The translations under genes were made by a program, and so were the position numbers. Of a stretch of 64,000 nucleotides of DNA, positions 7,733 to 51,777 are shown one piece after another. The stretch lies in the IMG/VR virus record IMGVR_UViG_3300010370_000027; one strand, written 5' to 3'. A model generated the notes under the pieces. The model did not search any database. It was not told the DNA's origin and saw only the letters and a program-made list of their open reading frames with translations. Position 1 is the stretch's first letter, and every line of letters starts with the position of its first letter. Origin of the DNA: a virus.

Positions 7733-7738
7733 ACCCCT

Positions 7739-13624: not shown

Positions 13625-13659
13625 GTTAGGACCTCTGTATGTTAAGTATTATCTAGAGG

Positions 13660-14160: not shown

Positions 14161-14161
14161 A

Positions 14162-14575: not shown

Positions 14576-14582
14576 TTGCGGA

Positions 14583-16420: not shown

Positions 16421-16688
16421 ATTCATTCTCCAATGTGTCTTTGTCGACAATAAAGTTTTTACCTTCGGGTGACTTCAGAATGGCATCCTTGGGGCCGACT
16501 GAAACGAGTGTATAAAGCAAGCCTGATTTTTTATGTGTTAGCTTTAGCTCGGGAGAAAGAAGCGGCTTTTCTTTTCCGTCTACTTTGCCTTTAAAGACTG
16601 CATCTACTTCTTCGGCAAGTGTAGCTAGCTTTGCTTCCCACTCTTCTCTCATAATCTTAACAATATCTGATTCTTCAAGCTTCTTCAT
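16410..16688 (-). CDS. Hypothetical protein with shared leader (IVKIMREE)
   Basis: ATATTTA upstream. Confidence 0.65.
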   Translation of the reverse strand: MKKLEESDIVKIMREEWEAKLATLAEEVDAVFKGKVDGKEKPLLSPELKLTHKKSGLLYTLVSVGPKDAILKSPEGKNFIVDKDTLENEYVI

Positions 16689-17115
16689 GACTACCACTAA
16701 ATATAACGTCAGAAAATCTATTTACGATAATGCCGCATGTTCGCAATATAGTGAGACCAGAAGAATCTCTGTATTCTTGATCGTAAACAACTTCTGATAT
16801 ATTTGCATTGACTATTAGTTTGGCACACTGTTGACACGGAGAGTGCGTTAAGTACATTATCTTCTTGCGATTGAAGTTATAATCACACTTGACTATAGCA
16901 TTTACTTCAGCGTGAATGAAACCCGACTGTCCTGGGTCAACTGAGTCAGGTTCATGTGGTCCGCCTCTATAGTTACCGTTATACCCGAGTGCTAGTAATC
17001 GAGTATTATCATCAGAAACTACTATTGCGCCAACTTTGAGACGTGTATCATAAGATCTCTCAGCTACGGTTTTTGCAATATTCATCCAAGTCTGGTGCCA
17101 TGTAGGTCTACTCAT
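16675..17115 (-). CDS. dCMP deaminase
   Basis: RPTW, KVGA, GYNG, HAEVNA, SPCQQC. Confidence 0.92.
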   Translation of the reverse strand: MSRPTWHQTWMNIAKTVAERSYDTRLKVGAIVVSDDNTRLLALGYNGNYRGGPHEPDSVDPGQSGFIHAEVNAIVKCDYNFNRKKIMYLTHSPCQQCAKLIVNANISEVVYDQEYRDSSGLTILRTCGIIVNRFSDVIFSGSHEEA

Positions 17116-17690
17116 TTTGGAGCCTTGACAATGTGTTGAAATAGTTCTGGGAAGTGCTGGGCGCAACGGGGCTCATATAGCTCTGAGCCGCCAACTTCGA
17201 TCTCTTCTCCACCCATTTGCTTCTTGTGGGTGAAATGAGCGTCTCTTCCGCATATCGTGCAAACAGCGGTGCATTTATGAACCTGTGTAGCCCAGGGAAG
17301 CATCTTCTCTATTTCGTGAAATGTTTTACCAGACGAAGACATCTCAAGAGATGAAACAACGATTGTAAAGCCATATGTGTAAAGCCATATTAGCGTTTCT
17401 GCTGCGCCGGGTATCATGAAGGCTTCGTCTACTGCAACGACTTGTGGTTCGTTTTCTAGACTTGTCAAGTACTCAAGGATTTCTGCGCCAGTTTTTACAC
17501 AAACAGCAGGTATACTACGCCCTCCGTGAGTAACGACATCACTCACGCTGTATCTGTCGTCAATATTAGGCTTGAAAATTTCAATCTTTTTGTGCTGATA
17601 CTTATATTTTTCAAGCGTAGTAAGAAGGCTGCTGGTCTTCGAAGAGAACATCGGGCCGCAGTAGACTATGAATTCTGGATTTGCTAGCAT
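17112..17690 (-). CDS. tdk: Thymidine kinase
   Basis: GPMFSSKT, VDEAF, CTIC, IEVGG.ELYEPRC. Confidence 0.93.
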   Translation of the reverse strand: MLANPEFIVYCGPMFSSKTSSLLTTLEKYKYQHKKIEIFKPNIDDRYSVSDVVTHGGRSIPAVCVKTGAEILEYLTSLENEPQVVAVDEAFMIPGAAETLIWLYTYGFTIVVSSLEMSSSGKTFHEIEKMLPWATQVHKCTAVCTICGRDAHFTHKKQMGGEEIEVGGSELYEPRCAQHFPELFQHIVKAPK

Positions 17691-18655: not shown

Positions 18656-18665
18656 GTTGTCCTCA

Positions 18666-18695
18666 ATTATAATACATGAACAATTTAATGGACAC
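18666..18695 (-). promoter_or_regulatory. Sigma70-like promoter for the epimerase-tdk-dCMP deaminase genes
   Basis: GTGTCC-N18-TATAAT. Confidence 0.6.
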
Positions 18696-18730
18696 TAAGA
18701 AAGAAGCCATTCTTTCTGAGAAATTAATTG

Positions 18731-20135: not shown

Positions 20136-21053
20136 TTATACCTTGTCGTGGCGAACGTGAAGACTATTATAGTTTACATCGAGAAAAATTTGCTTGGGAT
20201 TCCAAGAGAAGATTCTTGCAATTTCTGCTGAAAGATGAGAGAGAAATCTAAGATCTGCCGATCCGTTTTTGATGGAGTCAGTACTTCTAAGACCACACAA
20301 TACTCTTAAGCTGCCTGATCTGTTCAGAAAGTGGATCGAAGATATGCAGGTATCACTTGAATAGAAGAATCTTCTCGTATCCAACCCTTGCGGAGAATTG
20401 TAAGGATTTTCTCCAGCAGTTTCCTTCTGAATAACTTCTTTACACTTGTCAAAAATGCCTTTAAAGTATTCAGCTTCATGTTCAACAAACATGACGTCTG
20501 GGTCTTTGTACTCTGGTGAGAGATTTAGCCGGAGACCAAACTGAATCTCAGCGTCTGAATCTAATTTGGTCCACATTCTACTGAGGGAACCAAGCATTGC
20601 AGGTGTGAGCTGCTCATACTGATTCAATGCTCGTAAGGCAAGTTGAGTTACTTCTCGCTTGCTACAATTGCTCCTAATCACAAAAACATTGGGTAGCGAT
20701 TCAATCTTCTCTGTCTCTTCTAGAAAAATATCATAAAGACGACTGAGAGAGATTTCATTCTGAAATTCGTCGCCTCGTTCACGAAGCCTATTCAAAATCA
20801 CATCTTTTTCTGGGAGAAGAATTACAAAAAAGTTATTTGCATTACAAAGCTCTTCTCTAAGAGAGAATCTTAGTTCCTCAACGACGGGTCTGTCATACAG
20901 ACGAGCATAGCACAGAGTAGAAAGATAGGACCTGTCTCTAATATTTCTAATAAATGCTGTTGCCTTATTGAGGTCTGAATAAAGAGAAGTTTTTCCGCTG
21001 CAATCAGGACCCTCTAGAATGACATATCTTACAGGTAGGCTGCTCAAATTCAT
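20136..21053 (-). CDS. Fusion of a dNMP kinase with a truncated thymidylate-synthase/dCMP-hydroxymethylase-like domain
   Basis: N-terminal ILEGPDCSGKT and DRSYLS; C-terminal DTRR, TCISSIHF, RSTD.......D, SLHV. Confidence 0.75.
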   Translation of the reverse strand: MNLSSLPVRYVILEGPDCSGKTSLYSDLNKATAFIRNIRDRSYLSTLCYARLYDRPVVEELRFSLREELCNANNFFVILLPEKDVILNRLRERGDEFQNEISLSRLYDIFLEETEKIESLPNVFVIRSNCSKREVTQLALRALNQYEQLTPAMLGSLSRMWTKLDSDAEIQFGLRLNLSPEYKDPDVMFVEHEAEYFKGIFDKCKEVIQKETAGENPYNSPQGLDTRRFFYSSDTCISSIHFLNRSGSLRVLCGLRSTDSIKNGSADLRFLSHLSAEIARIFSWNPKQIFLDVNYNSLHVRHDKV

Positions 21054-24000
21054 ACCATTTGCCTCATCTTAAAAATTGAAGTAGAAAATCCCCATTGAGC
21101 GTCGTGCTGAGCCTTGCACACCCAGAGAGTGTAAGGCTTGATGTCTTCTTGGGGTGTGCCCCATACCCTAATCCTTGACGTCCTGAATGTATTGTCAAGG
21201 GTCTTAATTGCATAAAAAACCTTTCCGTTCTTCGTCTTTTTCATCTCGACCGAGGACGCGCAAAACCATCCAATTCCCTCAGATCCTGCAGGTATTTCAT
21301 GTAGACTTGGAACCTCTTTTTCTTCAACCTTCTTCATAACATCTGGTGGGAACAGTAGGTCTGAATCGATTGTAGAGGTAAGCTCATATCTGACCCCAAT
21401 CTTCTCTTCTCTGTCCCAGTCTTGCGTGGAAGAAAGCTCCTCTAAGAGAAAATCTAGGATGGGCATTACAGGTTCTCCAAGTTTCTCCTTCTTTTTCATC
21501 TGGGAAGGTGTCAAACCATAATAACCTTTTCTCAGCGTTTCATAGTTATCGCCCTCAGTAAGAGCCATTAAAAGCTGTCTATGATTTGCAACACGACCAT
21601 ACTGAAAATCCTCTAAAGATTCAAGTGCCTCTATTCTGCAAAGCGCTGTAAGAACGGTCTTGTTAATCTTGCTAGGTCTCCATGTGCCCGCTTCATCAAA
21701 GAGCATGCTGCTAAGGTTCTTATAGGGTCTACTTGCTAGAATCTCGTCGACTGCGGATGAACCAATTCCCTTCACAGAAGTCAAAGGAGGAACGAAAGCC
21801 TGCGCAGCATCAGAATATTGCCATTCTTTTCCCGAGTAATTAACATCTATCTTCGAGAAAGAATAGCCGATCGTCTTGATCTCAGAAATAGCCTTGGCAA
21901 GAGCGTCTGGATTGGAGTTCTCTGACTGTAGAATAGTTGCAAGCCATTCCTTCTCGTAGTGAGTGTGGAGCCATGCTGCATAGTAAGAATCAAGTGCATA
22001 TGCGACCGAGTGTGACTTATTAAAGCCGTAAAGAGAGAAGAATTCAATCTTGTCAAAAAGCTCATGCATCATCTTCTCGTCAAGGTCGTGAAGGCGCTTT
22101 GCTCCACTAACAAACCGCTCTCTAAGAACAGCTCTTTCGCCGCCTTTTTTGTCAGCAGTGTCAAGAGACTTCTTTACGAGAGTCTTTCGCATCTGATCAG
22201 CTTCGCCTTCAGAGAATCCAGAGAGCTCCATTGCAAGCAACATGAACTGCTCCTGGAAAGTGATGAAGCCCCTGGTCGCTCCGAGAACTTTCTCGATGAG
22301 AGGATGGTCGTACTTAATTTTAGAAAGGTCTTTCCCGGCATCGACGTACATGTTATGAACGTTCGCCTTGAGCGGTCCAGGACGATAGATTGCTGTAACT
22401 GCAGCTAGCTCGTCGATATTATTGGGCTTTGCCTGCATACAGAACTTTCGTGCACCACTCGCAGTAAATTGGAACACACCTACAAAGTTTCCCTTATGAT
22501 ACACGTGATCCCATACTTTGGGGTCGTCCTGTTTGACATATCGACAGTTAAGATGCTTGTCGAAAAAAGTCTTAATGTCTGTAAAAGAAGGATCTGGGTT
22601 GCCTTCCTTAACGAGAATGCGTCTAATGCAGTTCTCAACATCCTTGAGAAGTGTGAGTCCCAAGAAGTCGAACTTAAGGAACCCGTTCTCCTCTAGATTT
22701 CTGAAGTTCATACCTTCAGACCAAGGAGTCTGTAGTTCACCTCTGACACCGATGATAGGCATGGTAGCTGCGAGATCATCAGGATCGGCGACAAGAACAC
22801 CGCCCGCGTGGCGACCGACAGAACGATTCTGCATGAAGAGCGTTTCGACGTGCGCCGCTACGTCGGGGTATTTCTCCATGAAGTCTTTGTACTTTGGAGA
22901 ATATTTCATGCAGTCCTCGTGTTTCAAAACAAAGACCGACTTTTCAGTATCGTCATCTCGCGCCTGATTCATTACCTCGTCTTGTAGCGGTCCTGTCATC
23001 TCATTGACTTCTTCGAAGGGAACTCCGTAGATCTTAGAGATGTCTTTTACCAATGATTTAAGCTTCAAGGTGTTGAAGTTAGATACTGGGATTACTGCGT
23101 CGTCGCCAAATAGTTCGCGCGCAGAATCGATGAGTACATCACGGTCACCGGCGTCAGAGTCAATGTCGGGCCATGCAACCTTTTGACGATTGAGGAATCG
23201 ACCCCACAGTAGATTATATGGAATTGGATCAATCTGAGTGATACCGAGAAGAAAGTTGACGAGAGATCCGGCTCCGCTTCCTCTTCCTGGTCCGAGAAGA
23301 GTCCGCTCTTCAGACTTCTTGAAGATCTTATACATCGTGACGAAGTAAGAAGAGTGTCCCAAGAATTTGATGTCAGACAGCTCCATCTTTGCTCGCTCGA
23401 TATATTCAGCCTTGTCCGAAAGACCTTCGCGCTCGAGGCCTTCTTTTACGAGCTTCGTTAGCTGTTGGAACGTGGAGTTACCAGGTTCGTCGAGGTGCGG
23501 AAGTTTTGCCTTGACAGGAATCCAGGTGTCTTCGCATTCTTGCCACGCAAGATCGTGAGTTCTCTCAATCGAATCGCGAACAAGCTCTTCGGTACCCTGA
23601 TAGAATTCATATTGTTCATATGACTTTAGAAATTCATCCCACATCTGGGTGGCATTCTTCGGATATAGTTCGCACTTAAGATCCTCAAATCTTGGAAGTG
23701 CGCCTTGATCGAGTTTCGCACCCATCCAGCCGAGCTTCTTGTAAAGTTCGCGTGCTTGCCACTTAGACGGGTCTGGGTAGTGAGAATCGCATGTGGAGAT
23801 AAGCGGGATACCCGTTTTCTTATGCAAATCAATTAGATACTTGTTGACTGTATGTTGCTTCTCAAGCTTATTGAACTGCAACTCCAAGAAGAAGTTATTG
23901 CGTCCAACAGCATCTACAAAACGATCTGCAACGTTCTCGATGTCACTGAGAATCTCTTGCCCAGTCTTGCCATGCGCTTCTCCAAGAAGAATCTTGGAGG

Positions 24001-24646
24001 AGAAGTATCCGCCAAGGCAAGCGGTCGACCAGATGATATCTGATCCGTACCTAGACAAGAGATCGAAATCGATTCGAGGATATCGATAGAAACCGTCCTT
24101 GTACGACAGCTTCACGAGTCTGTAGAGATTGGCCAGGCCGTTCTTATTTTTTGCAACTGCGACCAAGTGGTAACGCCTTTGCCAATCTTTCGATTTAACG
24201 TCGACAGTCTTTGTTTCATTCTCGTCCTCTACGACGAGACCACCCTGTTCCTCTTCGTCTGCATCGACGTCCGTAGGTGTCTTGGCACGCTTTTCAGCCT
24301 CGGCTGCACTCTTGGCGTCCTTGATAGATTGCTTGTGAGCTTCGTAGTCGAGCGACCATTGAGTCAGCGAGGGAACGAAGTAGAACTCAACACCGTACAG
24401 CTGGCGATACTTGATGCCCTTCTTCTGGATCTTGGCGGCTGCATTCTTGGCGTGTGCGTGACCGTTGCCGTTGCCGTGGTCGGTCAAGGCCCAGGCATCC
24501 ATTCCCTGAGATTCAGACGTCACAAATGAAATGTGATCTCCTGGATAGCCGAGACCGTCAAATGTTGAAAATCCTGAGTGCGAGTGTAAACCGACGAACC
24601 GATTCGGAGGCCTGATTTCATCCAGCGACTTAATGAGACTTGACAT
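21050..24646 (-). CDS. dnaE: DNA polymerase III alpha subunit (family C)
   Basis: PHP domain (LHSHS, TDHG, DSHY), GRGSGAGSL, PDIDSD, HAGGV, KFDFLGL, YGFNKSH, C-terminal OB fold. Confidence 0.97.
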   Translation of the reverse strand: MSSLIKSLDEIRPPNRFVGLHSHSGFSTFDGLGYPGDHISFVTSESQGMDAWALTDHGNGNGHAHAKNAAAKIQKKGIKYRQLYGVEFYFVPSLTQWSLDYEAHKQSIKDAKSAAEAEKRAKTPTDVDADEEEQGGLVVEDENETKTVDVKSKDWQRRYHLVAVAKNKNGLANLYRLVKLSYKDGFYRYPRIDFDLLSRYGSDIIWSTACLGGYFSSKILLGEAHGKTGQEILSDIENVADRFVDAVGRNNFFLELQFNKLEKQHTVNKYLIDLHKKTGIPLISTCDSHYPDPSKWQARELYKKLGWMGAKLDQGALPRFEDLKCELYPKNATQMWDEFLKSYEQYEFYQGTEELVRDSIERTHDLAWQECEDTWIPVKAKLPHLDEPGNSTFQQLTKLVKEGLEREGLSDKAEYIERAKMELSDIKFLGHSSYFVTMYKIFKKSEERTLLGPGRGSGAGSLVNFLLGITQIDPIPYNLLWGRFLNRQKVAWPDIDSDAGDRDVLIDSARELFGDDAVIPVSNFNTLKLKSLVKDISKIYGVPFEEVNEMTGPLQDEVMNQARDDDTEKSVFVLKHEDCMKYSPKYKDFMEKYPDVAAHVETLFMQNRSVGRHAGGVLVADPDDLAATMPIIGVRGELQTPWSEGMNFRNLEENGFLKFDFLGLTLLKDVENCIRRILVKEGNPDPSFTDIKTFFDKHLNCRYVKQDDPKVWDHVYHKGNFVGVFQFTASGARKFCMQAKPNNIDELAAVTAIYRPGPLKANVHNMYVDAGKDLSKIKYDHPLIEKVLGATRGFITFQEQFMLLAMELSGFSEGEADQMRKTLVKKSLDTADKKGGERAVLRERFVSGAKRLHDLDEKMMHELFDKIEFFSLYGFNKSHSVAYALDSYYAAWLHTHYEKEWLATILQSENSNPDALAKAISEIKTIGYSFSKIDVNYSGKEWQYSDAAQAFVPPLTSVKGIGSSAVDEILASRPYKNLSSMLFDEAGTWRPSKINKTVLTALCRIEALESLEDFQYGRVANHRQLLMALTEGDNYETLRKGYYGLTPSQMKKKEKLGEPVMPILDFLLEELSSTQDWDREEKIGVRYELTSTIDSDLLFPPDVMKKVEEKEVPSLHEIPAGSEGIGWFCASSVEMKKTKNGKVFYAIKTLDNTFRTSRIRVWGTPQEDIKPYTLWVCKAQHDAQWGFSTSIFKMRQMV

Positions 24647-24979: not shown

Positions 24980-25020
24980 ATCGTAAACAATTCAGGCAGC
25001 CATTTGCACAGCTGCCTGAA
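24980..25020 (-). promoter_or_regulatory. Sigma70-like promoter overlapping a 10-bp inverted repeat
   Basis: GTGCAA-N18-TACGAT; ttcaggcagc/gctgcctgaa. Confidence 0.6.
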
Positions 25021-25023
25021 ACA

Positions 25024-25485
25024 TCACTCGATTTCCTTATCGTAAGGTTCGTAGAGCATCTTACCTGCATCCCTGCAGCGATTAAGATAGTCCTCAAGCT
25101 GATCGAACGTGGTACAAACCTTAATACCAGATCGACTGAGCATTAGGTTGAACTTGGCTCCTGGTGGGAGGTTCTCACAGAAATAGACGATCTTGCGGTC
25201 AAGGGCGAATGCAGCTCCTGCCTCCCAGATTGTGCCGATGTCACGATAGGTGGTGTTAACAAGAGTGAAGTCGCATTCGCGGATGTGCTTCATGTTACCC
25301 TTGAAGACGTTGTCCTGAACCTCGAGAGAGGCATCTGGTGGGCAAACGAAGATGCGACGAGGAGATGCAAGCTCGATCCAGTCCTCACGGCTGTCAAAGA
25401 CAGCTTCAAGCTTCGTGAGTTGCTTGTCCTGGTCTGGCGAAAACCACCCTGATGCCAAATAGACATGTTGTTTACGATCGAACAT
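25024..25485 (-). CDS. Nucleoside 2-deoxyribosyltransferase / dNMP N-glycosidase family protein
   Basis: VYLASGWF, SPR, DIGTIWEAGAAFAL.RKIV, FNLML. Confidence 0.88.
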   Translation of the reverse strand: MFDRKQHVYLASGWFSPDQDKQLTKLEAVFDSREDWIELASPRRIFVCPPDASLEVQDNVFKGNMKHIRECDFTLVNTTYRDIGTIWEAGAAFALDRKIVYFCENLPPGAKFNLMLSRSGIKVCTTFDQLEDYLNRCRDAGKMLYEPYDKEIE

Positions 25486-25712
25486 TATTGACTCCTCCGC
25501 TTGTATTCCTGTCGACGTGCTTCCATCTCACTCCACACGTCGTCGTGTGTGAGAACAATGCTAAGACATTGTGTCACAGCATCTGTGATCTGATCGTTGA
25601 TGCCCTTCGGCATGTTCATGTTCTGCATAACGTGTGCAATGAGTTCTAGATCATCCATCTTCTTCATGTTACTTACCAGCTTTCCAGGCATCATGTTGCG
25701 CCTTGAGTCCAT
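25485..25712 (-). CDS. Small hypothetical protein
   Basis: Fills the gap between the ThyX-like gene and the NDT gene; true start may be a later Met. Confidence 0.55.
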   Translation of the reverse strand: MDSRRNMMPGKLVSNMKKMDDLELIAHVMQNMNMPKGINDQITDAVTQCLSIVLTHDDVWSEMEARRQEYKRRSQ

Positions 25713-26652
25713 CCCAGTCCTTCATATCTGCGTTCCACAGTTCGGTGAACCTCTTCTGTGGACCATCGCCGTGGGTACCATTGATCTCCTCCCTCGTGCA
25801 CTGGTAGATCGTGTCGTTCGGGTGGAACTCGAACTTGTCGTTCTTTGGAATAGGCCAGTAGAGGTTAGTGCCACGGGACACGAACTTGTCACCTTCCTTC
25901 ACGCGGAAGGTCTTGATGTAGTGCATATCGGGCTTGTTGAAGTCGATCACCGACGTGAACTCAGGAATCACCTTGGCGACTTCTACGGCCATTCTCGAGG
26001 CGAGGAGGTTGTCAGCAGCAGGCTGGATCTGCGTGTCCATGCGCTGGTAAATGAAACCGATGAGGTCCTTGAGCGACAGTCGCATGTAGTAGAACGAGGT
26101 CATGCACTTCGGGAGGATGAGTCGGGCATCCATCATGGAGACCGCCTTGGAGTCGACCATCTCAGCGTAAAGTTCCTTGGAGTCGTTTACGATCTTCTCC
26201 CAGCGGCGAAGGAAGTCGGGCGAGTTCTGCACGGGTTCCGGAACGACCACGTCGTCATCACGGAGGTCGCGATCACCCGTGCACTGTGCAGCGAAAGTAC
26301 CTGCACGGTGGCGAATGATGTGAGTCACCTCCTGGAAGGACAGGCCGCTGAGACGGAACGTGAAGCCGAGGCACTCCATTGGAGCAGGAAGAGTGCGCCC
26401 ACCAAATACGTCCTCGAGGTTCTTGGAGAGTTCCTGCTGCGACACTCCTTCAGTCGGGTCGATGTCTGGGCGATCTGCCCAGGTGGCCTTGACGTAGTGC
26501 CATGCCACGTTCCATGCCTGTTGGCGGGTCGGGTGATCGACTAGCTCCACTTTGAGAGCGTCGAGGTTGTTAAGGAAAGTGGTCTTCGGTTCTTGACCGA
26601 ACTTGAGGACCATTGGGAGTTCGATTGGTTCTAGATCTTTATTGATGGGCAT
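25669..26652 (-). CDS. Divergent ThyX-fold flavoprotein with C-terminal extension
   Basis: KVELVD, FTFRLSGLS, IIRHR, DARLILP, QR; the motif after RHR is AGTFAAQCTGD instead of xxSxxQxSxRY. Confidence 0.8.
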   Translation of the reverse strand: MPINKDLEPIELPMVLKFGQEPKTTFLNNLDALKVELVDHPTRQQAWNVAWHYVKATWADRPDIDPTEGVSQQELSKNLEDVFGGRTLPAPMECLGFTFRLSGLSFQEVTHIIRHRAGTFAAQCTGDRDLRDDDVVVPEPVQNSPDFLRRWEKIVNDSKELYAEMVDSKAVSMMDARLILPKCMTSFYYMRLSLKDLIGFIYQRMDTQIQPAADNLLASRMAVEVAKVIPEFTSVIDFNKPDMHYIKTFRVKEGDKFVSRGTNLYWPIPKNDKFEFHPNDTIYQCTREEINGTHGDGPQKRFTELWNADMKDWDGLKAQHDAWKAGK

Positions 26653-26684: not shown

Positions 26685-26714
26685 ATTATAGACTGCAAGA
26701 GGACGATATTACAA
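26685..26714 (-). promoter_or_regulatory. Sigma70-like promoter for the divergent ThyX-NDT genes
   Basis: TTGTAA-N18-TATAAT; GGAGA Shine-Dalgarno downstream. Confidence 0.72.
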
Positions 26715-27266
26715 TAAACAAGAAACAGCGTCAATGAACTGTGTTTGAAGATGATCAGGTATTGCTTTTCTATAGTCGACAGGGAAGAAATCATTTCTGT
26801 CAACGGCAACATTAAAGTGATTCTCGTGATTGGGAGTGCTAGCGTGATGTGTGTGACCGTGAACGACGTGCTCTATTTCACCAATCTCGTCAAGATTAAC
26901 GCCGAAATCTTGAGCTGTCATGAGTGGGTAATGAATTACCAAAACACCACCCAGCTCAAGTCGTTCAAAAACTTTTTCGAATCCTGACGCTTCATACCAA
27001 TCATCAGTCTGATGATCGTGGTTGCCTCTCACGAGGAATTTTCTTCCATTAAGAGATCGGATAACTTCCCTCAAATTTTCTTCCCTTTTTCCAAGACCAG
27101 CAGACAAATCGCCACAATATATGACTGAGTCATCTTTACCGACCGTGGTGTTCCATCGACAAATCATGTCAGCATTCATGCAATCGACGTCTGAAAAAGG
27201 TCGATTGCAATACTTGATTATGTTAGAGTGAAAGAAATGATGGTCAGATGAGAAGAAAATACTCAT
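26709..27266 (-). CDS. Calcineurin-like metallophosphoesterase
   Basis: SDHHF.H, GD, GNHD, HYP, HGHTH, NVAVD. Confidence 0.92.
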   Translation of the reverse strand: MSIFFSSDHHFFHSNIIKYCNRPFSDVDCMNADMICRWNTTVGKDDSVIYCGDLSAGLGKREENLREVIRSLNGRKFLVRGNHDHQTDDWYEASGFEKVFERLELGGVLVIHYPLMTAQDFGVNLDEIGEIEHVVHGHTHHASTPNHENHFNVAVDRNDFFPVDYRKAIPDHLQTQFIDAVSCLL

Positions 27267-28933
27267 GAAGTCAATGTTGATCTTACATAAGTCCTAATCA
27301 AGTTTTCAACAGCGAGTCTCGAAGAAGCTATTTTTGACATAGTTTTCCACACACCTAGCTTCCCTTCTTTTCCAAGCCAATCTGGAAGATTCTTGATGAA
27401 TGACTTGGAGTCTCCCGAAGACAGATACTGGCGCATAGCTGTTCCGCTTACGCCTCCTGTTCCCGATCTCTTTACACCGGCAGCAAGTATTCTATCTTTT
27501 AGTTCAGGATTTTTCTGGGTTATGGTGTCTACTCGCTGCTGTGCCTCGTTTTCTCCTGCCGAGTCTATTCCTCCATAAAGCCTGACAATCGTCTTCTTTC
27601 CCCTGTTGACAAGATCACGAGCTACTAAAACTGCCTCTCTCATTGGAGAATCAGAGAATCTAATTACAACTTTATCTCCATATTCTTCTGATATGCCAGG
27701 AATATAATAGTCGCGCCAGAGAGGTATCATGTCCTCAGCAGTTATTTCCTCTCTGCCGCCAGTTGAAACAAAAATTATGATGGAGTCATTTCCGTCAGCA
27801 ATGGCTTGCTTAATGAGAGAGTCATGTCCAGAATGAAATGGCTTTGCAGCCATCGGAATGACAGCAACTTTATTCGCTCGATGCGTACCCGTGCTTAGAA
27901 GGCGCAATTTTGCTGTGAGAAGAATGTCTTCCTGTACATTTATCTTTGATTTTACTGGGTGTTCAGGCAAGTCTTCTAGGCTATAAGCAATACTAGAAAG
28001 TTTATCAAGCATCTCTTCTGGTTTGCCGCGGGGAAGATTGTCTAAAATTCCATCAACCAATTCATTAACAGCGCGCCAGTACAACGTCTCTTCGTCTGCG
28101 GTTCCTTTTGATCTGGCAGCCTTTGCCGCCCTGACATCTTTGCTATGCTGATCCGAAGCAAGAACTTTAATTAGTTGCTTTTCAGATACTTCATCGTCTC
28201 CTATTTGTATGACAACTCCCTCGGCAGCTCCGCCGAGGGAGGATTCTAACTGTGAAAAAGAATTTGCAGTTAGATTAACGATAGACATCGGATCAGAGAA
28301 GTCAGTACTATCAAAGCCCTGCTGAAATAAGCTCTTCAGCCCAGCATCAATGCATCCGTCAAGAATCGATTTGCGAGAAGACAGATTTCCGTCAAACACA
28401 ACAGGGAATGAACCAAGCTTTAACATCTTCCTGTAGGATTCAAGCTCTTCAGGTGAATCCACGAAGTTAGAAGAAGAAAATAGTTGACCTCTAGAAACAG
28501 CATATTTTGTAGGACCGAATCCTACCAAATACATGCCATGCTTTTTCGCATAGTCACGTGTAACTGTAGGCTTGTTCTGTACAAACTCTATAAAAAACTC
28601 AGTGTTAACCGGTATCTGCGATGTCCCTGGGTGAACTTTTTTCAGATGGTCATGAACAAATTTGTACTGTGACGTGCCAAGCGCTGTTGCCTTTATGTCC
28701 TTTTCTCTTTTTTCTAACCCCTTGAATTCCGTTGAATATATTACATTTCCCTTGTAGGAAACTATCCAGTTCTTGGAGTAATCTTTGGGATCAAAAGGAC
28801 TGTCGTTCCTTATAAGTGTCAGCTTAGTTCCGTCGATCTTTTCTACAGCGACTATGTGTTTTCTTATAAAGTCAGAAGCTTTTTTCGGGTTAGTAATTGC
28901 CTTTTGAAGGGCTTTGATCGATATGTCAAGCAT
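27263..28933 (-). CDS. Fusion of an ATP-dependent ligase-like nucleotidyltransferase with a HIGH-motif (cytidylyltransferase/NMNAT-like) domain
   Basis: EKIDGT (motif I), FIEF, EGVVI, IKV; then KPFHSGH and SGTAMR. Confidence 0.7.
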   Translation of the reverse strand: MLDISIKALQKAITNPKKASDFIRKHIVAVEKIDGTKLTLIRNDSPFDPKDYSKNWIVSYKGNVIYSTEFKGLEKREKDIKATALGTSQYKFVHDHLKKVHPGTSQIPVNTEFFIEFVQNKPTVTRDYAKKHGMYLVGFGPTKYAVSRGQLFSSSNFVDSPEELESYRKMLKLGSFPVVFDGNLSSRKSILDGCIDAGLKSLFQQGFDSTDFSDPMSIVNLTANSFSQLESSLGGAAEGVVIQIGDDEVSEKQLIKVLASDQHSKDVRAAKAARSKGTADEETLYWRAVNELVDGILDNLPRGKPEEMLDKLSSIAYSLEDLPEHPVKSKINVQEDILLTAKLRLLSTGTHRANKVAVIPMAAKPFHSGHDSLIKQAIADGNDSIIIFVSTGGREEITAEDMIPLWRDYYIPGISEEYGDKVVIRFSDSPMREAVLVARDLVNRGKKTIVRLYGGIDSAGENEAQQRVDTITQKNPELKDRILAAGVKRSGTGGVSGTAMRQYLSSGDSKSFIKNLPDWLGKEGKLGVWKTMSKIASSRLAVENLIRTYVRSTLTS

Positions 28934-30122
28934 CTAGCAAGTTTCTCCATATTCTCAAAGATTCTGATCTGACCTTGTAGGACTTATAATAGTCTTCTTG
29001 CAAGTCTTCGAGATGTCTGTCATGCTTTTGAAGAAAGGGAAATTTATTTCTAAATGCAGCTATTGCAGGCATCTTGGCTGACATGTCACCTTCAGAGCTT
29101 GTTGCGTCGAGGGCCTGGCCTTCTTTTCCATATAATTTAAATCCTATAAAGTCAAGGTATACTTCTTCAATCTGATTGTCGTCGAAGTGATCCTGCATTA
29201 ATTGCAGAAGGCCAAGGTAGGAATCTAGAAGATTCAGCTCATTTCCGACAGGATTGTCTCCAAAGAGCAGTCTAAAAATTTCTTTTTTCGATCTAACGTC
29301 ATCACCAGCAGGAATCTCCTTGTACGCCTCCATTCCGTTTACAATCACAGGTGTTCCGTCCTTGTGAAATTGCTGGGTAAACTTTGTTCTTAGGCCTTTG
29401 TCGACTGAAAATGAAAGAAGCCTTACAGGATTTGTGGTCTTCGACACCTTGACCTTTTCAGGTGGGTCGAGCGGACTCGTTCTTGTGAGAAGAACTACAT
29501 CTCGTTTCAGTGAAACAACTGTAGCAAGACATCTCAGAATATATTTGTGAAATACTCCTTTAATGCTGCTTTTTGTATCTTCCCAAGAAGAAGAGTGACC
29601 AAACTTTGCAAACTCGTTCGGAGATCCTGATTCATAGTCTACGGACTCAAAATCAATCTGAACATAAAGCTGAGGATTATTTCCGTCTGAATACGTGAAG
29701 AGACAATTGATCTGCTCTCCGCCAATACCTGCTTTTTTATCGACGTATGAAACCGAAGAATTTAGCTTCTTCCCTGTAATTTCATCAAGAAGCTCAAAAA
29801 GAGTCTTAAAGTTCTCCTTCGGAACTGTCAAGTCTATGTCGCCGAATGTTGGCTTGTATTCATTTATCTCTTCGTCAGAAAGTCTATTTCCGAATAAATG
29901 CTCAGAAGAACCATTGAATGCCTCTCCTGTGTTTAGTAGGGTATCACGAGTCTTTGCGGGCCAGATTGGTGTTCCAAACTTCTTCGCATGTAACTTGTCA
30001 AGAACTTTAAAAGCATCAACAAAAGACTTCTTAAACTGAGTCCTATCGATCTTTCTAAAGTCTGGTTTATCCACTCTGTAAGACTTGCCTGAAGGTCCCA
30101 CAATATTTACATTTCCGCCCAT
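28926..30122 (-). CDS. Pol-beta superfamily nucleotidyltransferase
   Basis: NGSS...GDIDL...VQIDF; KGVFHK; FSVDKGLR. Confidence 0.7.
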   Translation of the reverse strand: MGGNVNIVGPSGKSYRVDKPDFRKIDRTQFKKSFVDAFKVLDKLHAKKFGTPIWPAKTRDTLLNTGEAFNGSSEHLFGNRLSDEEINEYKPTFGDIDLTVPKENFKTLFELLDEITGKKLNSSVSYVDKKAGIGGEQINCLFTYSDGNNPQLYVQIDFESVDYESGSPNEFAKFGHSSSWEDTKSSIKGVFHKYILRCLATVVSLKRDVVLLTRTSPLDPPEKVKVSKTTNPVRLLSFSVDKGLRTKFTQQFHKDGTPVIVNGMEAYKEIPAGDDVRSKKEIFRLLFGDNPVGNELNLLDSYLGLLQLMQDHFDDNQIEEVYLDFIGFKLYGKEGQALDATSSEGDMSAKMPAIAAFRNKFPFLQKHDRHLEDLQEDYYKSYKVRSESLRIWRNLLDA

Positions 30123-30160: not shown

Positions 30161-31102
30161 TCAGACAACTGGGATAAAATCAATGGGATTGCATCCTTTT
30201 GGAACATACGATATGTTATTAATTCCTTTGACTTCCTGATTGTATGATTTTTCCGGAACCATGACTTTTACATCATGCTTGGCATATTCTGCAGCGTGCT
30301 TCGCAGAGTCATCGATTGCAAAGTACTTGCCTTTGCTGTAATACGGCTGCTTGGTGAGCCAAACAAACTTCTCTGGTGCGAAGGCAACTCCGTCTGCATC
30401 TATCTTGTTCATAGAGAGCCAGGCGTACGTATCATAAAAACAATTGAGCTCATTCTCAGGACGAGAAGTTATGATCTGAATCCAGTATCCTTGCGACTTG
30501 AGATGATTCAGCAGAGCGATATATGCTTCGTCCCTCTCTAGCAAAGCAAGACCGTGACAGTCTATGAACTCTTTGAAATATCCTTCGCTGTTAATGTCAA
30601 GCTTCTTAAACTCGCGAACGTTATAGTATTCATCACTTTCTGGGTCGATGAAATGACCGCATTTTCTCGATGACCAATCGCAGAAAGACTTTCTAAAATT
30701 TGCTAATACATCATCCATGTCGAAAAGAGCGACAGGCTGTTCACCATCCCAGCATCTTCCAGCCATCTTGTGTCTGTAGTGAAGAAAGCTGTTCTTTTGG
30801 TCCAGGGCAGCTGCAAAATTATTCGAGTCAATTCCCCACAGGTTAAGGATGGCTAGAATATATCGATAAGCATCGACTGTCTTGAAGAGGATCTTTGCTA
30901 TGTCTACGGGACCTTCTGAAGTTCTATGATCCTTATAGTTAACAGCTTCTACGATTCCTGTTGCCTCTGAGTGCAATGCAAGAACAAGCGTCTTTAAGTG
31001 TTCTTCTCTCTGTTTTTCAGTTAGCTTTGAAGAATCAAAGAAAAGATCAGAGAAGTCTTTTTGAGCTGCTAGAGATTCATCGAGATTATTCCAGTTAGGC
31101 AT
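30161..31102 (-). CDS. Fusion of a degenerate all-alpha NTP-pyrophosphatase domain with a HAD 5'-nucleotidase (NT5C-like)
   Basis: N-terminal HSEATGIVEAVNYKDH..VD; C-terminal FDMDDVL, ITSR, K, IDD. Confidence 0.78.
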   Translation of the reverse strand: MPNWNNLDESLAAQKDFSDLFFDSSKLTEKQREEHLKTLVLALHSEATGIVEAVNYKDHRTSEGPVDIAKILFKTVDAYRYILAILNLWGIDSNNFAAALDQKNSFLHYRHKMAGRCWDGEQPVALFDMDDVLANFRKSFCDWSSRKCGHFIDPESDEYYNVREFKKLDINSEGYFKEFIDCHGLALLERDEAYIALLNHLKSQGYWIQIITSRPENELNCFYDTYAWLSMNKIDADGVAFAPEKFVWLTKQPYYSKGKYFAIDDSAKHAAEYAKHDVKVMVPEKSYNQEVKGINNISYVPKGCNPIDFIPVV

Positions 31103-31479
31103 TAGTAGTCTTTCTTCAGCCTGTCATGAATGATACTGTCTTTTCTAGTATAAGCTTCAAACAACTCTTCTGCATCGATGCCTAGCATGACGAGGACAGA
31201 AAGAAAGTAATTGAACGCGTCTACATACTCTTCAAGAAAAGCTTCGTGATCAAAATCTGCAATCTCTGTCGTTCTATGTGGCTTCCAGTTCTTTAGATGC
31301 GCAAGAGACTCAAACATCTCCTCGACTCCCTTCAAAACTGTATCTCGAACAACTTGCTGAGACTCTTTCCTAGAAATGTCAACAGGCCACGATTGCAGAA
31401 CAGCAGGCCTCTTTGCAGCCAAGTCTCTCATAAACTTCTCTCGAAGCTCTAGCATCTTAGTAAGTTTGCAACTATCCAT
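31102..31479 (-). CDS. All-alpha NTP pyrophosphatase (dimeric dUTPase/dCTPase/MazG-like)
   Basis: EEMFESLAHLKNWKPH, EEYVDAFNYF, YTRKD..IHDR; start set at MDSCK. Confidence 0.8.
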   Translation of the reverse strand: MDSCKLTKMLELREKFMRDLAAKRPAVLQSWPVDISRKESQQVVRDTVLKGVEEMFESLAHLKNWKPHRTTEIADFDHEAFLEEYVDAFNYFLSVLVMLGIDAEELFEAYTRKDSIIHDRLKKDY

Positions 31480-31488
31480 ATCTGTTAG

Positions 31489-31528
31489 ATCATATAAACG
31501 TCCAAACAGTAAGTACAATGCATATTTA
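31489..31528. promoter_or_regulatory. Back-to-back promoters: sigma70-like on minus, ATATTTA on plus
   Basis: Minus TTGTAC-N18-TATGAT; plus ATATTTA at 31522-31528, 5 nt before ATG 31534. Confidence 0.62.
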
Positions 31529-31533
31529 GAAGT

Positions 31534-31872
31534 ATGAAGAGAAGCATCGTTGAAATAATACAGGAAAGATTCGGTGATCCTATTGGAAGTTACGCTGGTG
31601 ATGCGCCAGCAGGTGTTCGAAGCATTGATGAGAGCATCTGTCCCGAATGCGGCATGAAAGACTGCGAATGCGAACACACAAACGAAGCTGAGGCTTGCAC
31701 GCAATGTGGCTACATGAAAATCGAAGGATCTTGTGGTTGCACTCACCTCGACGAAGCAAAGAAGAAAAAGAGAGGTCTCTGGGCGAACATTCATGCCAGA
31801 CGCAAGGCAGGTAAACGTCCTAAGCGACCAGGAGAGAAGGGCTATCCTGAAACGTTAGACGTAACCAAATAA
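31534..31872 (+). CDS. Small Cys-rich/basic protein with shared leader
   Basis: ATATTTA 5 nt upstream; MKRSIVEIIQE; CPECG, CTQCG; GLWANIHARRK..PGEKGYP; followed by a terminator. Confidence 0.75.
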   Translation: MKRSIVEIIQERFGDPIGSYAGDAPAGVRSIDESICPECGMKDCECEHTNEAEACTQCGYMKIEGSCGCTHLDEAKKKKRGLWANIHARRKAGKRPKRPGEKGYPETLDVTK

Positions 31873-34794: not shown

Positions 34795-34844
34795 ATTGAA
34801 AAGACTCCTAGCTCCTAAGTATTAAGCGTCCATAAAATCATACG

Positions 34845-35039: not shown

Positions 35040-35043
35040 GTAG

Positions 35044-36527: not shown

Positions 36528-36542
36528 GATGTAATTATTATG

Positions 36543-39551: not shown

Positions 39552-40142
39552 TCAAGATGGTATGTTCCTTGTAGTCTTTAACACCACGATTATTTCTGTA
39601 AATACTGATTCTTTAGATCTATCTGAAGCTACTATGTGAGCTTCTTTTGGGTTCTTGTTGACCCAGTCAGCATAAAGCTTTCTCACTTTTTCCTGAAGCT
39701 CGTTATCTTTCTCATAGACGTCTTCAGCGACGTGTGCGTGGGGCTTGCCAAGAAGCACAAGCGTGTAATCTGGTTTTCTTAGCTTTCTATAGAAATAGTT
39801 GACAAATCCGTCATCGACTCCGGCAGCCTTGCCATACACTGTCGTAGAGAGACTCCACCTGTCAAAGATGAGATAGTCATATTCGTGATCGAGATCTGAA
39901 AGTTCTTTCGTTTGAAAGAGCCAGCGATTGAGGAACTGAGTGAGCTGAAAGATTCTTGGGAATTTTTTAGCGTGTCCCTTCTCAAGCATCCAGTAAATTG
40001 CGTCGTATGTAACTTTATCGTGTATGGGAACTTCCACCACTTTAGCTTTCTTTCCGCATTGCCAAAGATATTCACAGAGTAGCGCACTCTGTGTGGCCTT
40101 GCCGCATCTATCAGGTCCTTCAATCACTATGATCTTGCTCAT
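39552..40142 (-). CDS. tmk: Thymidylate kinase
   Basis: IEGPDRCGKATQ, FDRWSLS, KPD, D.YE. Confidence 0.9.
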   Translation of the reverse strand: MSKIIVIEGPDRCGKATQSALLCEYLWQCGKKAKVVEVPIHDKVTYDAIYWMLEKGHAKKFPRIFQLTQFLNRWLFQTKELSDLDHEYDYLIFDRWSLSTTVYGKAAGVDDGFVNYFYRKLRKPDYTLVLLGKPHAHVAEDVYEKDNELQEKVRKLYADWVNKNPKEAHIVASDRSKESVFTEIIVVLKTTRNIPS

Positions 40143-40798
40143 TCGAAAGGTCCTCTTAGCTGTCCATCAACAAGCAAACCGAAAGCTTCGAGTGTGGCAT
40201 CAAACTGTCCAGTTTCCTTGACGAGTCTCAGCATCTCACCTGCCAAGTCGCGAATCTCCAGCTGGGCGTGTGTGGAGTATCGCAGTCTGAGGAAGTGAAC
40301 GAAGCTCCTGAAGTTGAACATCACGTCAGCCGTGAGCTGATTCCCGTAAGGAACATACATCCTGGCAGATTCCTTGGCTCTCTTCCGAGGAACGCCCTTC
40401 TTCTCGAGACGTGTGAGAACCTCGTGGTATCTCTTCAGGGAAGCCTCCATGTGCTCGACGTACTTCGTCTTCTCCTCTGTGTCCCAGTCTGTAGGAACGT
40501 AATACTTGTCGTCCTTCAACTCCTTGTATCGAGCTGACTCTCCGTTCACGGAGACTCCGATGCGATGCTTAATCAAATGGATATGTGAAGCAATCTCGGT
40601 CGTGCACAGGAAGTGGAGCGAACTCTTCTCGAAGGGAGTTTCGTGTCCATTCTCTGCGAGCATTTTCAGAAGCTTGGGACTTCTCTCCCTCTTCTCGTCC
40701 GTCAAATCACGAGAGGTGGAGGTCCACGCCGAAAGGGCGTGGGATTCATCTCCACCATAAAAACCGATTAATTCTACTCTGTTGAGTTGTTCGGGCAT
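40139..40798 (-). CDS. thyX: Flavin-dependent thymidylate synthase (canonical)
   Basis: GHETPFE, KHRIGVSVNGESARY, ESAR, FLRLR...HAQLEIR. Confidence 0.93.
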   Translation of the reverse strand: MPEQLNRVELIGFYGGDESHALSAWTSTSRDLTDEKRERSPKLLKMLAENGHETPFEKSSLHFLCTTEIASHIHLIKHRIGVSVNGESARYKELKDDKYYVPTDWDTEEKTKYVEHMEASLKRYHEVLTRLEKKGVPRKRAKESARMYVPYGNQLTADVMFNFRSFVHFLRLRYSTHAQLEIRDLAGEMLRLVKETGQFDATLEAFGLLVDGQLRGPFE

Positions 40799-51770: not shown

Positions 51771-51777
51771 GCTGGTA

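Follow-up and report, generated by a model that had tools for sequence, protein, structure and literature searches.

Why would a large uncultured phage that already encodes a canonical flavin-dependent thymidylate synthase (ThyX) carry a second, remodelled ThyX-like gene, and what reaction does the second protein carry out? We addressed this question in a stretch of 64,000 nucleotides from a virus (IMG/VR record IMGVR_UViG_3300010370_000027), hereafter referred to as the window. The ordinary dTTP route of the window consists of a canonical ThyX and a thymidylate kinase (Table 1). An earlier note on this DNA, made from the letters alone, had placed a canonical ThyX at 40139, and the TIGR02170 equivalog model agrees, with a score of 105.2 bits that is above the cut-off of 87.9. 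The paralog scores only 35.8 bits with the same model, which is below the curated threshold, and it matches Pfam Thy1 (PF02511) over residues 49-231 (E 1.9e-17), a core that is flanked by N- and C-terminal extensions. Our tentative answer is that the paralog is a neofunctionalised enzyme of the ThyX fold that does not make dTMP, and that it may instead place a one-carbon group, likely hydroxymethyl, on C5 of a pyrimidine dNMP, for which dCMP is the favoured candidate.

The paralog keeps part of the active site of the flavin-dependent thymidylate synthases (FDTS, EC 2.1.1.148; T. maritima TM0449 and M. tuberculosis ThyX; PF02511, TIGR02170), with which it shares the fold. Its translation has intact RHR (residues 114-116) and ARxxLP motifs, the latter as A-R-L-I-L-P (176-181). 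The remainder of the ThyX motif RHR-x7-S-x-R-Y is altered. Residue equivalences were taken from sequence alignments, and those to T. maritima ThyX and to the canonical copy of the window both put Cys124 at the serine position (T. maritima Ser88) and T125-G126-D127 at x-R-Y, where Arg90 becomes Gly and Tyr91 becomes Asp. In the GHxxPFE segment the paralog has G-R-T-L-P-A-P-M-E, where Leu88 occupies the position of His53 and Glu93, the Glu58 equivalent, is retained. The earlier note had described the two kept motifs and all of these replacements correctly. In the folate complex of T. maritima ThyX, His53 of GHxxPxE stacks on the folate, and the paralog thus has Leu at the folate-stacking position. 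The phosphate and base arginines, equivalent to T. maritima R78, R80, R147 and R174, are all present. Of the FAD contacts, RHR and the Glu58 equivalent are retained, while Arg165, a FAD-phosphate contact outside RHR in T. maritima (PMC6514825), corresponds to Lys195, at a position that is variable in the family. In ThyX, Ser88, Arg90 and Tyr91 are conserved and assist methylene transfer, and their mutants are slower, by >100-fold for Y91A (PMC8316439). Furthermore, the Arg90 equivalent bonds C4=O of uracil, and the Arg174 equivalent bonds C2=O and N3 (PMC9571937). The contact that discriminates uracil from cytosine is therefore gone from the paralog, whereas the contact common to both bases is retained.

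The altered signature is conserved over a clade found only in viruses, which comprises about 140 clusters (50% identity, E under 1e-10). Residues were counted in 94 representatives with mutual identities <50%. The His53 position is Leu in 83 of the 94 and His in none; the Ser88 position is Cys in 64, the Arg90 position is Gly in 65, and the Tyr91 position is Asp or Glu in 73. The four arginines are nearly invariant (R114 in 94/94, R116 in 89/94, R177 in 91/94 and R204 in 92/94, in the order of their equivalents R78, R80, R147 and R174). Cys is accompanied by Asp or Glu in 61 of 64 rows, as against 12 of the 30 rows that lack Cys, and never by Arg at position 126, in counts that ignore phylogeny. 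In a tree that also holds canonical ThyX, the comparison proposed by the earlier note, the paralog falls inside a separate clade of 45 rows (SH-aLRT 100) with the canonical copies outside, and basal members of the long clade retain S-x-R. Decay to a pseudogene, which the note had named as an outcome that would undo its reading, is ruled out by the conservation of the altered residues over the ~140 clusters and by the very high AF2 confidence. A search of 185,579 species genomes gave three cellular matches, all on MAG contigs that bear the phage module described below. Geobacillus phage GR1 (47.6% identity) is the sole close relative among cultured phages; a relaxed search of these brought in nothing beyond remote ThyX genes of canonical type from phages of Pseudomonas, Escherichia and Bacillus. 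A nucleotide-level search with 12 kb around the paralog gave no match among phage records, and full-text literature searches found no paper characterising the family.

In every source the family is annotated as thymidylate synthase, and it could be just that: a divergent yet genuine flavin-dependent enzyme that gives the phage a second source of dTMP, adapted to phage conditions, to timing or to resistance against inhibitors. We consider this improbable. In its favour, the ThyX-like gene is the only annotated gene of thymidylate-synthase type in GR1, the sole cultured carrier, where it could simply make dTMP, and the basal S-x-R members speak for the same function. The S88C mutant of T. maritima ThyX reportedly stays active. 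This mutant has been made and crystallised (PDB 3g4c). However, all three residues that assist methylene transfer are replaced in the paralog, the folate-stacking His is gone, and the score lies far under the equivalog cut-off. Moreover, canonical ThyX is present in all four large related records that were searched and lies within 10 kb of the ThyX-like gene at 12 loci, and the dedicated kinase, glycosyltransferase fusions and nucleotide-clearing enzymes found with the family would have no role in plain dTMP synthesis.

The AF2 model of the paralog has a pLDDT of 95.9. It includes, with high confidence, the 96 residues that follow the end of Pfam Thy1, close to the 90 or so extra residues of the earlier note; there are also ~25-48 extra residues at the N-terminus relative to ThyX. 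The top Foldseek matches of the model are PolB (4p5b) and ThyX, with probability 1.00 and 15-20% identity. PolB, the UMP/dUMP C5-methylase of polyoxin biosynthesis (4p5a/4p5b), is the best of them (E 2.5e-10, TM 0.72 on target), which makes it a well-chosen precedent in the note. Like the ThyX-like protein as we read it, PolB is a neofunctionalised ThyX paralog beside a housekeeping ThyX. It differs from the paralog in its low identity (18%), in being a bacterial methylase of uracil nucleotides from a secondary-metabolite cluster, and in having no NDT, kinase or pyrophosphatase module. A homodimer model supports binding, with a score of 0.68 compared with 0.00 for the best of three controls; of proteins solved as pairs of one chain, 20 of 30 attained the mark for support, as did 1 of 23 proteins solved as single chains. 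The homodimer runs agreed in at least 92% of contacts, with a partner pLDDT of at least 88. As in ThyX, the predicted oligomer puts the catalytic loops at the subunit interface, which takes in residues 113-118, 124-127 and 168-183. In contrast to ThyX, the terminal extensions join this interface. The homodimer result may reflect mere likeness to the solved ThyX tetramers.

Table 1 Positions of the ThyX-like paralog, its neighbours and related features in the window.
Feature	Position	Strand	Description
dCMP deaminase (16675-17166) and thymidine kinase (17112-17690)	16675..17690	-	Pool enzymes adjoining the module
Module kinase (YorR-like P-loop) fused to mini ThyA-type domain	20136..21053	-	R227-R228, C236, R256-S257, D267
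DnaE-type replicative polymerase	21050..24646	-	Flanked by the module
Terminator-like hairpin after NDT-like gene	24991..25020	-	13-bp stem, weak T tail
NDT-like protein	25024..25485	-	153 aa; Pfam Nuc_deoxyrib_tr, E 3.6e-13; downstream of paralog
Small ORF between paralog and NDT-like gene	25485..25667	-	Stop overlaps NDT start (TAATG)
ThyX-like paralog	25669..26652	-	327 aa; Thy1 core, residues 49-231; signature RHR-x7-C-T-G-D-R-D
Sigma-70-like promoter match TTGTAA-N18-TATAAT	26685..26714	-	Consensus match, 33 nt upstream of paralog start codon
Three-gene insert: metallophosphoesterase, ligase-like/cytidylyltransferase-like protein, 398-aa protein	26709..30122	-	
NT5C/HAD-type 5'-deoxynucleotidase domain protein	30161..31102	-	313 aa
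All-alpha NTP pyrophosphatase (dUTPase_2/MazG-like)	31102..31794	-	dUTPase_2 match; first gene of the lineage's core cassette
Canonical ThyX (40139-40798) and thymidylate kinase (39552-40142)	39552..40798	-	Ordinary dTTP route

The gene downstream of the paralog encodes an NDT-like protein, taken by the earlier note for a hydrolase that is co-transcribed with the paralog. The first point is doubtful. The protein has the catalytic Glu motif D-I-G-T-I-W-E (D-x-G-T-x-x-E) and F-N-L-M, with the asparagine of N-L-M. These catalytic motifs align with 6evs (E 6e-11), a true N-deoxyribosyltransferase and the closest relative with a solved structure; as read from its motifs, it would fit a transferase or nucleoside enzyme better than a hydrolase. 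Co-transcription is plausible: along the coding strand, the first predicted terminator-like site after the paralog is the hairpin at 25020-24991. Between the two genes there is a small ORF, for which phmmer finds relatives only in three close kin (L002, L003 and L010). Upstream of the paralog, the promoter-like site of the note is indeed present and matches 10 of 12 consensus positions. The region has 5 such sites compared with 2.8 +/- 1.9 in shuffles, so that the site by itself would be weak evidence for a promoter. The three-gene insert that splits the cassette is found only in this phage and its closest relatives (3-4 of 89 loci) and lies outside the module.

The search for related loci was seeded with 16 closer sequences, and the neighbourhoods that it returned hold a recurrent module of an all-alpha NTP pyrophosphatase, a 5'-nucleotidase of HAD or HD type, the ThyX-like protein, the NDT-like protein and a small YorR-like kinase, adjoining DnaE, PolA or PolB polymerases. 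Among the first 89 loci, NDT is adjacent to the ThyX-like gene in 85, the pyrophosphatase is present in 76 and the NT5C-type nucleotidase, which is directly upstream of the ThyX-like gene in relatives, in 72. Nine divergent contexts have NDT (8/9), the kinase (8/9), the pyrophosphatase (6/9) and an HD nucleotidase (6/9); in these other lineages the HD (YfbR-like) enzyme replaces the NT5C type. The same gene order and NDT adjacency recur in L092-L094 and L101, and in L008 and L009 the kinase gene is next to the ThyX-like gene or overlaps it.

The kinase of the window is fused to a mini ThyA-type domain, in which the spacings are 20 from Cys to Arg and 11 from Arg to Asp. We take these to equal the spacings of C146-R166-N177 in E. 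coli ThyA, with Asp where the cytosine-specific T4 gp42 has Asp. For the favoured reading, this fusion is a pointer to cytosine. The domain occurs only in some lineages, where it is fused to the kinase; the lineage of the window and L092 bear a separate TS-type domain. A stand-alone kinase without mini-TS accompanies the ThyX-like gene in GR1, L004, L009, L093 and L094.

These two arrangements bear on a further possibility, to which we give a slim chance, namely that the chemistry is not folate one-carbon transfer. The paralog might, for example, use flavin for the oxidation or reduction of a substituent that the mini-TS has put on C5 (hydroxymethyl to formyl), or it might catalyse a flavin-free reaction. 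No member of the clade has the folate-stacking His, and one of the FAD contacts is variable, both of which suit such a reaction. In ThyX, C5 of the nucleotide lies within 3.5 A of flavin N5 (PMC6514825), a geometry that also suits hydride transfer from a C5 substituent. Furthermore, the separate TS-type domain of the window lineage and of L092 could make the first intermediate, and GR1 has a nitroreductase-type flavin reductase directly upstream. However, the carriers without mini-TS imply that the ThyX-like enzyme must be able to act first in the pathway, and the Leu that replaces His53 could pack against a pterin all the same.

Glycosyltransferases are linked to the family by three independent routes. 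There is one within the GR1 cluster, and two adjoin NDT in L101. In addition, the ThyX-like proteins P0149 and P0272-P0274 carry a fused GT-A domain, which in P0275 and P0276 is joined to the kinase instead. The GT-A identity of the fused N-domain comes from a fold search only, in which all listed PDB matches of its model were GT-A glycosyltransferases or GT-A domains; a sequence search against the PDB gave no match. The three links involve unrelated glycosyltransferases, which rules out one shared family across the contexts, and a search of the window itself yielded none. Taken with the wider module, these links, which like that module are absent from the earlier note, point to modification of DNA precursors.

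Starting from the fold, the conserved rewiring, the module, the co-occurrence with canonical ThyX and these links, we infer a route for the favoured reading in which each chemical step is conditional. The modification would probably be pre-replicative, with hydroxymethyl as the probable group and dUMP as the main rival substrate. The all-alpha NTP pyrophosphatase would convert the canonical dNTP to dNMP, which the ThyX-like enzyme would bind by its retained phosphate arginines and the O2/N3 arginine. Cys124, at the position of T. maritima Ser88, a residue once proposed as nucleophile, would add to C6, while Asp127 would handle the N3/N4 side or activate water. The methylene of methylene-tetrahydrofolate, presumably via a flavin, would then go to C5 and be hydrated rather than reduced. 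The small kinase of the module would give the diphosphate, the neighbouring polymerase would incorporate the modified base, and in several lineages a linked glycosyltransferase would decorate it. The 5'-nucleotidase and the NDT-like enzyme would remove the canonical nucleotide and put its deoxyribose back to use on other bases. Several observations speak against this route: the folate-stacking His is missing; Lys195 stands in place of the FAD-phosphate arginine, at a variable position (PMC6514825); the cytosine-type mini-TS would leave the window lineage with two enzymes for C5 of dCMP; and the window has no glycosyltransferase of its own that we could find.

The same type of enzyme and module could instead act on dUMP, giving 5-hydroxymethyl-dUMP or another C5-substituted dUMP that partly replaces thymidine, an explanation that we judge rather unlikely. 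Here the pyrophosphatase, 5'-nucleotidase, NDT and thymidine kinase would feed dUMP (dTTP to dTMP to dT, to dU by base exchange, and to dUMP). Apart from NDT with the nucleotidase, no route from dT to dU is obvious; the module nearly always has both, and this recycling explains their presence more economically than the dCMP route does. A thymidine kinase is encoded in the window and in GR1, which also has amidoligase and gamma-glutamylcyclotransferase genes, and the arginine that activates N3 (R204; role in PMC8316439) is retained in 98% of representatives. According to a published report (PMC13697223), phages whose DNA is T-modified encode dCTP deaminase, dUTPase and a TS homolog; the window, for comparison, has genes for dCMP deaminase and a trimeric dUTPase. 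Bacillus phage SP-15, in which about half of T is replaced and the T modification is known from experiment, likewise combines a canonical Thy1 (gp9), a divergent Thy1 (gp130), NDT (gp127) and an HD 5'-nucleotidase; the role of gp130 as hydroxymethyluridylate synthase is a published hypothesis. However, gp130 and the paralog share only the fold (Foldseek E 2.8e-6, 11% identity); profile comparison detects no homology to the ThyX-like family (hhalign probability 1.5%), and we treat gp130 as an analogue only. Moreover, the uracil O4 contact Arg90 is lost, the replacement by Gly-Asp would be needless for a uracil substrate, and Cys with an acidic residue is the classic pair for C5 chemistry on cytosine. 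The fusion of the module kinase to a cytosine-type mini-TS also argues against dUMP, and a pathway that destroys dTTP would oppose the co-resident canonical ThyX and Tmk.

The favoured route follows the same logic as the hm-dC pathway of T4 (gp56 dCTPase, gp42 dCMP hydroxymethylase, gp1 dNMP kinase and glucosyltransferases), in that an NTP pyrophosphatase, a C5 enzyme, a dedicated kinase and glycosyltransferases, here predicted from genes, lie beside replication genes. Unlike T4, the conserved C5-type enzyme is of ThyX rather than ThyA fold, and a 5'-nucleotidase and NDT are added. In mildiomycin and bacimethrin biosynthesis, MilA/MilB and BcmA/BcmB also pair a C5-modifying TS-type enzyme, a TS-like CMP hydroxymethylase, with an enzyme of the NDT superfamily, an NDT-fold N-glycosidase. 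Those systems differ from the module in their ThyA fold, their ribonucleotide substrates and the release of free base for an antibiotic, while the NDT-like protein of the module has nucleoside-transferase motifs and a setting of phage DNA replication.

With more reserve than the favoured reading itself, we suggest that the ThyX scaffold may have been turned into a Cys-assisted, flavin-linked hydroxymethylase of dCMP (or dUMP), in which case T4 gp42-type chemistry would have arisen a second time, independently. The enzyme would anchor a widespread module of five genes (pyrophosphatase, nucleotidase, NDT, ThyX-like and kinase) by which a canonical pyrimidine is replaced in the DNA of many uncultured phages from water, gut and soil, with base exchange by NDT recycling the deoxyribose of the excluded nucleoside. 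If this is true, hundreds of phage genes named thymidylate synthase are mis-annotated and signal a base modification of DNA that is widespread yet undescribed; modifications of this kind stop restriction and CRISPR defences from working, and they bias the sequencing of environmental viruses. It would also mean that a Cys-Asp pair can serve to rebuild the flavin-dependent mechanism of ThyX, in which no enzyme nucleophile is required, and that the conserved NDT partner is the first example of a phage base-replacement pathway with deoxyribosyl transfer built in. The cultured carrier, Geobacillus phage GR1, makes the question directly testable. The paralog gene has GC-rich third codon positions, as the earlier note had remarked, with a GC3 of 0.72 compared with 0.30-0.61 in 19 other genes of the window.

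The second Thy1-type gene of the window encodes a protein in which several active-site motifs of ThyX are changed. The substitutions listed in the earlier note were all borne out when the protein was aligned to T. maritima ThyX and to the canonical ThyX of the window. RHR (114-116) and A-R-x-x-L-P (176-181) are retained, Cys124 replaces the signature Ser, the subsequent x-R-Y is T-G-D and, within GHxxPFE, the His position is Leu88 while the Glu is kept as Glu93. The Thy1 core is followed by 96 C-terminal residues. The ORF also matches the PHROG thymidylate-synthase family. Its TIGR02170 score of 35.8 bits lies below the cut-off of 87.9, and it is scarcely alignable with the canonical copy, which at 105 bits is the bona fide ThyX that it had been called. 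The GC-rich third codon positions were likewise found: at 0.72, its GC3 is well clear of that of the other 19 genes measured (0.30-0.61, led by canonical ThyX, RecA and NDT at 0.61, 0.58 and 0.57), which suggests expression-linked codon bias or a separate origin. The strong promoter proposed upstream fared less well; the promoter-like TTGTAA-N18-TATAAT is present, but 3 kb of sequence contains five such matches, where shuffled sequences gave 2.8 ± 1.9.

Coordinates of the features discussed, by record.
Record	Feature	Coordinates	Strand	Remarks
Window	UDPGP-like gene	644-1648	-	
Window	Carbon-nitrogen hydrolase	11584-12339	-	
Window	Fe/Mn superoxide dismutase	15695-16450	-	
Window	NAD-dependent epimerase/dehydratases	17684-18655, 19126-20127	-	
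Window	YorR-like kinase fused to ~150-aa domain	20136-21053	-	window lineage and L092
Window	DnaE	21050-24646	-	one intact 1198-aa ORF
Window	ThyX-like ORF	25669-26652	-	327 aa; Pfam Thy1 residues 49-231, E 1.9e-17
Window	Promoter-like motif	26714-26685	-	
Window	Three-gene insert	26709-30122	-	metallophosphoesterase; 556-aa ligase-like + cytidylyltransferase-like; 398-aa PHROG 19290 protein
Window	S66 LD-carboxypeptidase	35571-36527	-	
Window	Hsp20	38812-39201	-	
Window	Canonical ThyX	40139-40798	-	
Window	Volactin-family actin	46917-47921	-	
Window	HD-domain protein and 402-aa protein	51183-52993	-	
Window	Three very large ORFs	53032-63263	-	980, 1008, 1218 aa
L001 (GR1)	Flavin reductase	11286-11885		
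L002	Split DnaE	12644-18729		
L004	Split DnaE	12186-17260		
L009	GT-A-fusion site	7726-9381		
L105 (SP-15)	gp127-gp130 cluster	33730-36911		

A word-indexed search returned 989 relatives of the ThyX-like protein, the best 120 of which have 77-100% identity, and when 1.84 billion cluster representatives were searched exhaustively with HMMER, 422 clusters matched at E ≤0.001 and 138 at E ≤1e-10. Among 185,579 species-representative prokaryote genomes only three relatives turned up, each on a MAG contig that also has the phage module. Conservation was counted in 94 full-length representatives with mutual identity below 50%. The position of T. maritima His53 is Leu in 83 and His in none, Ser88 is Cys in 64, Arg90 is Gly in 65 and Tyr91 is Asp/Glu in 73, while R78, R80, R147 and R174 are retained in 94, 89, 91 and 92. 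In raw counts that ignore kinship, Asp/Glu accompanies Cys in 61 of 64 rows, versus 12 of the 30 non-Cys rows, and Cys never occurs together with Arg at the Arg90 position. In a maximum-likelihood tree, the query lies inside a 45-row clade with SH-aLRT 100. Below this clade are long ThyX-like proteins that retain S-x-R (actinophage 'ThyX-like thymidylate synthases', P0268, P0270, P0224), and canonical copies, also those from the same phages, fall outside it. The rewiring of the active site is thus derived and under selection; decay as its cause was rejected. Every source labels the family thymidylate synthase, and a full-text literature search found no paper characterising it. The family combines the ThyX fold and a remodelled active site with an undescribed module.

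The AF2 model of the protein (pLDDT 95.9, pTM 0.92) includes confidently modelled extensions, and its top solved matches, at 15-20% identity, are ThyX of several species and PolB (4p5b), a UMP/dUMP methylase. A two-copy model with FAD scored 0.68, versus 0.00 for the best of three controls, with at least 92% contact agreement between runs and a partner pLDDT of at least 88. Of 30 proteins solved as one-chain pairs, 20 reach the mark for self-association, as does 1 of 23 single-chain structures. The predicted interface includes the RHR loop (113-118), the C-T-G-D loop (124-127), the ARxxLP region (168-183) and parts of both extensions. The modelling supports self-association, although the pass may reflect mere likeness to solved ThyX, since ThyX tetramers are already among the solved structures.

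In ThyX, the conserved Ser88, Arg90 and Tyr91 are within hydrogen-bond distance of the flavin carbinolamine, methylene transfer is slower in the S88A, R90A and Y91A mutants (more than 100-fold in Y91A), and Arg174 deprotonates N3, thereby activating dUMP (PMC8316439). In the M. tuberculosis enzyme, the Arg90 equivalent contacts the uracil C4=O and the phosphate, and the Arg174 equivalent contacts C2=O and N3 (PMC9571937). Tyr108 forms a lid above C5 and N5, and the RHR motif, Ser71 and Arg190 hold FAD in place (PMC6514825). The equivalent of Arg190/Arg165 in the ThyX-like protein is Lys195, at a position that varies across the family. As read from the alignment, the family has lost the contact to the atom that tells uracil from cytosine and gained an acidic residue beside it, and it retains the O2/N3 contact common to both bases. 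Deprotonation of N3 cannot activate cytosine. The Cys sits where the ThyX serine was once proposed as nucleophile, and the known cytosine-C5-modifying enzymes use a Cys nucleophile and an acidic residue.

Gene context was compared in 80 IMG/VR loci with 57-98% identity and in further loci, 89 in all. About 1 kb upstream of the ThyX-like gene, 72 of the 89 have an NT5C/HAD nucleotidase gene, before which comes an all-alpha NTP pyrophosphatase (present in 76 of the 89). In 85, an NDT-like gene directly follows the ThyX-like gene, starting about 1 kb downstream, the NDT-less loci being mostly short or cut near the NDT end. The three-gene insert, which splits the otherwise contiguous cassette, was found in only 3-4 loci, those of the window phage and its closest relatives. 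When nine divergent contexts (the window, GR1, L004, L006, L008, L009, L092-L094) were compared all against all, five shared families emerged: the ThyX-like gene in 9, NDT and a small P-loop kinase of YorR-like type in 8 each, and the pyrophosphatase and an HD (YfbR-like) 5'-nucleotidase in 6 each. The HD nucleotidase fills the role of the HAD enzyme of the window lineage and is a non-orthologous replacement. The polymerases that adjoin the module are DnaE, PolB (L009) and PolA (L008, L101). Canonical ThyX lies within 10 kb of the ThyX-like gene in 12 loci, and all four large related records searched have it, each with a strong and a weak match to Thy1. Geobacillus phage GR1 has no other annotated thymidylate synthase, which speaks for a plain thymidylate synthase, a reading that we consider unlikely. 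Directly upstream of its ThyX-like gene, GR1 has a nitroreductase-type flavin reductase (NAD(P)H nitroreductase/dihydropteridine-reductase-type). This phage further encodes two NDT genes, an amidoligase, a gamma-glutamylcyclotransferase and a thymidine kinase.

The module kinase stands alone (140-170 aa) in GR1, L004, L009, L093 and L094. The domain fused to it in the window lineage and L092 has invariant R227-R228, C236, R256-S257 and D267. Its Cys-to-Arg and Arg-to-Asp spacings, 20 and 11, are those of C146-R166-N177 in E. coli ThyA, and Asp occupies the base-specificity position, as in the cytosine-specific T4 gp42. Three links to glycosyltransferases, independent of each other, were found: a 460-aa glycosyltransferase within the GR1 cluster; two GT7C-like genes that adjoin NDT in L101; and a domain with I-P-C-Y-K-R-E, H-D-N-D and E-D-S-E motifs, alone in P0271, which is fused N-terminally to the ThyX-like protein in P0149 and P0272-P0274 and to the kinase in P0275 and P0276. 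The AF2 model of this domain has a pLDDT of 66 overall and above 77 across most of the core, and the PDB matches listed for it are all GT-A glycosyltransferases or GT-A domains. The GT-A fusions place ThyX-like protein, kinase and glycosyltransferase in one pathway, and suggest that its product bears a hydroxyl group. No glycosyltransferase was found within the window. Its epimerase/dehydratases, within the nucleotide-metabolism block, and its UDPGP-like gene could possibly supply sugar nucleotides for DNA glycosylation.

The reading that needs the fewest assumptions is that of a module for pre-replicative pyrimidine modification, which by analogy would follow the pathway logic of the T4 hmC route but build on the ThyX fold. 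Tentatively, we favour dCMP as the substrate, because the O4 contact is lost and a Cys-Asp pair gained, the module kinase has a cytosine-type TS domain as its fusion partner, the dTTP route is kept in full, and a trimeric dUTPase is present, so that the all-alpha pyrophosphatase need not target dUTP. A strong rival, which we hold to be somewhat less probable, is dUMP. The near-universal NDT and 5'-nucleotidase are best read as dT-to-dU recycling, and the T-hypermodified Bacillus phage SP-15, in which about half of the DNA T is replaced, has canonical and divergent Thy1, NDT and an HD nucleotidase, the divergent Thy1 having been hypothesised in print to be a hydroxymethyluridylate synthase (PMC5977210). 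This divergent Thy1 has no detectable homology to the ThyX-like family. In SP-15 it is gp130, clustered with a 316-aa NDT and an SDR-type reductase, and the HD 5'-nucleotidase (gp090) lies 27 kb upstream of this cluster. Some other chemistry on the ThyX scaffold is about as unlikely as plain thymidylate synthesis.

The window comes from a large uncultured phage; the exact-match protein, P0001, is recorded on a 168-kb contig, and a nucleotide search with 12 kb around the gene gave no match among deposited phages. With few exceptions its genes lie on the minus strand. Among them are those for a DnaE-type polymerase, DnaB, a class-II-like RNR, RecA and a gp32-like protein, and for trimeric dUTPase, thymidine kinase, dCMP deaminase and Tmk. 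DnaE, intact here, is split by intein and HNH insertions in relatives near and far. An HD-domain protein adjoins the 402-aa protein, which has a weak family-A DNA polymerase match, the main polymerase being DnaE-type. The three very large ORFs have no Pfam match. Cargo uncommon in phages comprises the superoxide dismutase, the carbon-nitrogen hydrolase, the LD-carboxypeptidase, Hsp20 and the volactin-family actin.
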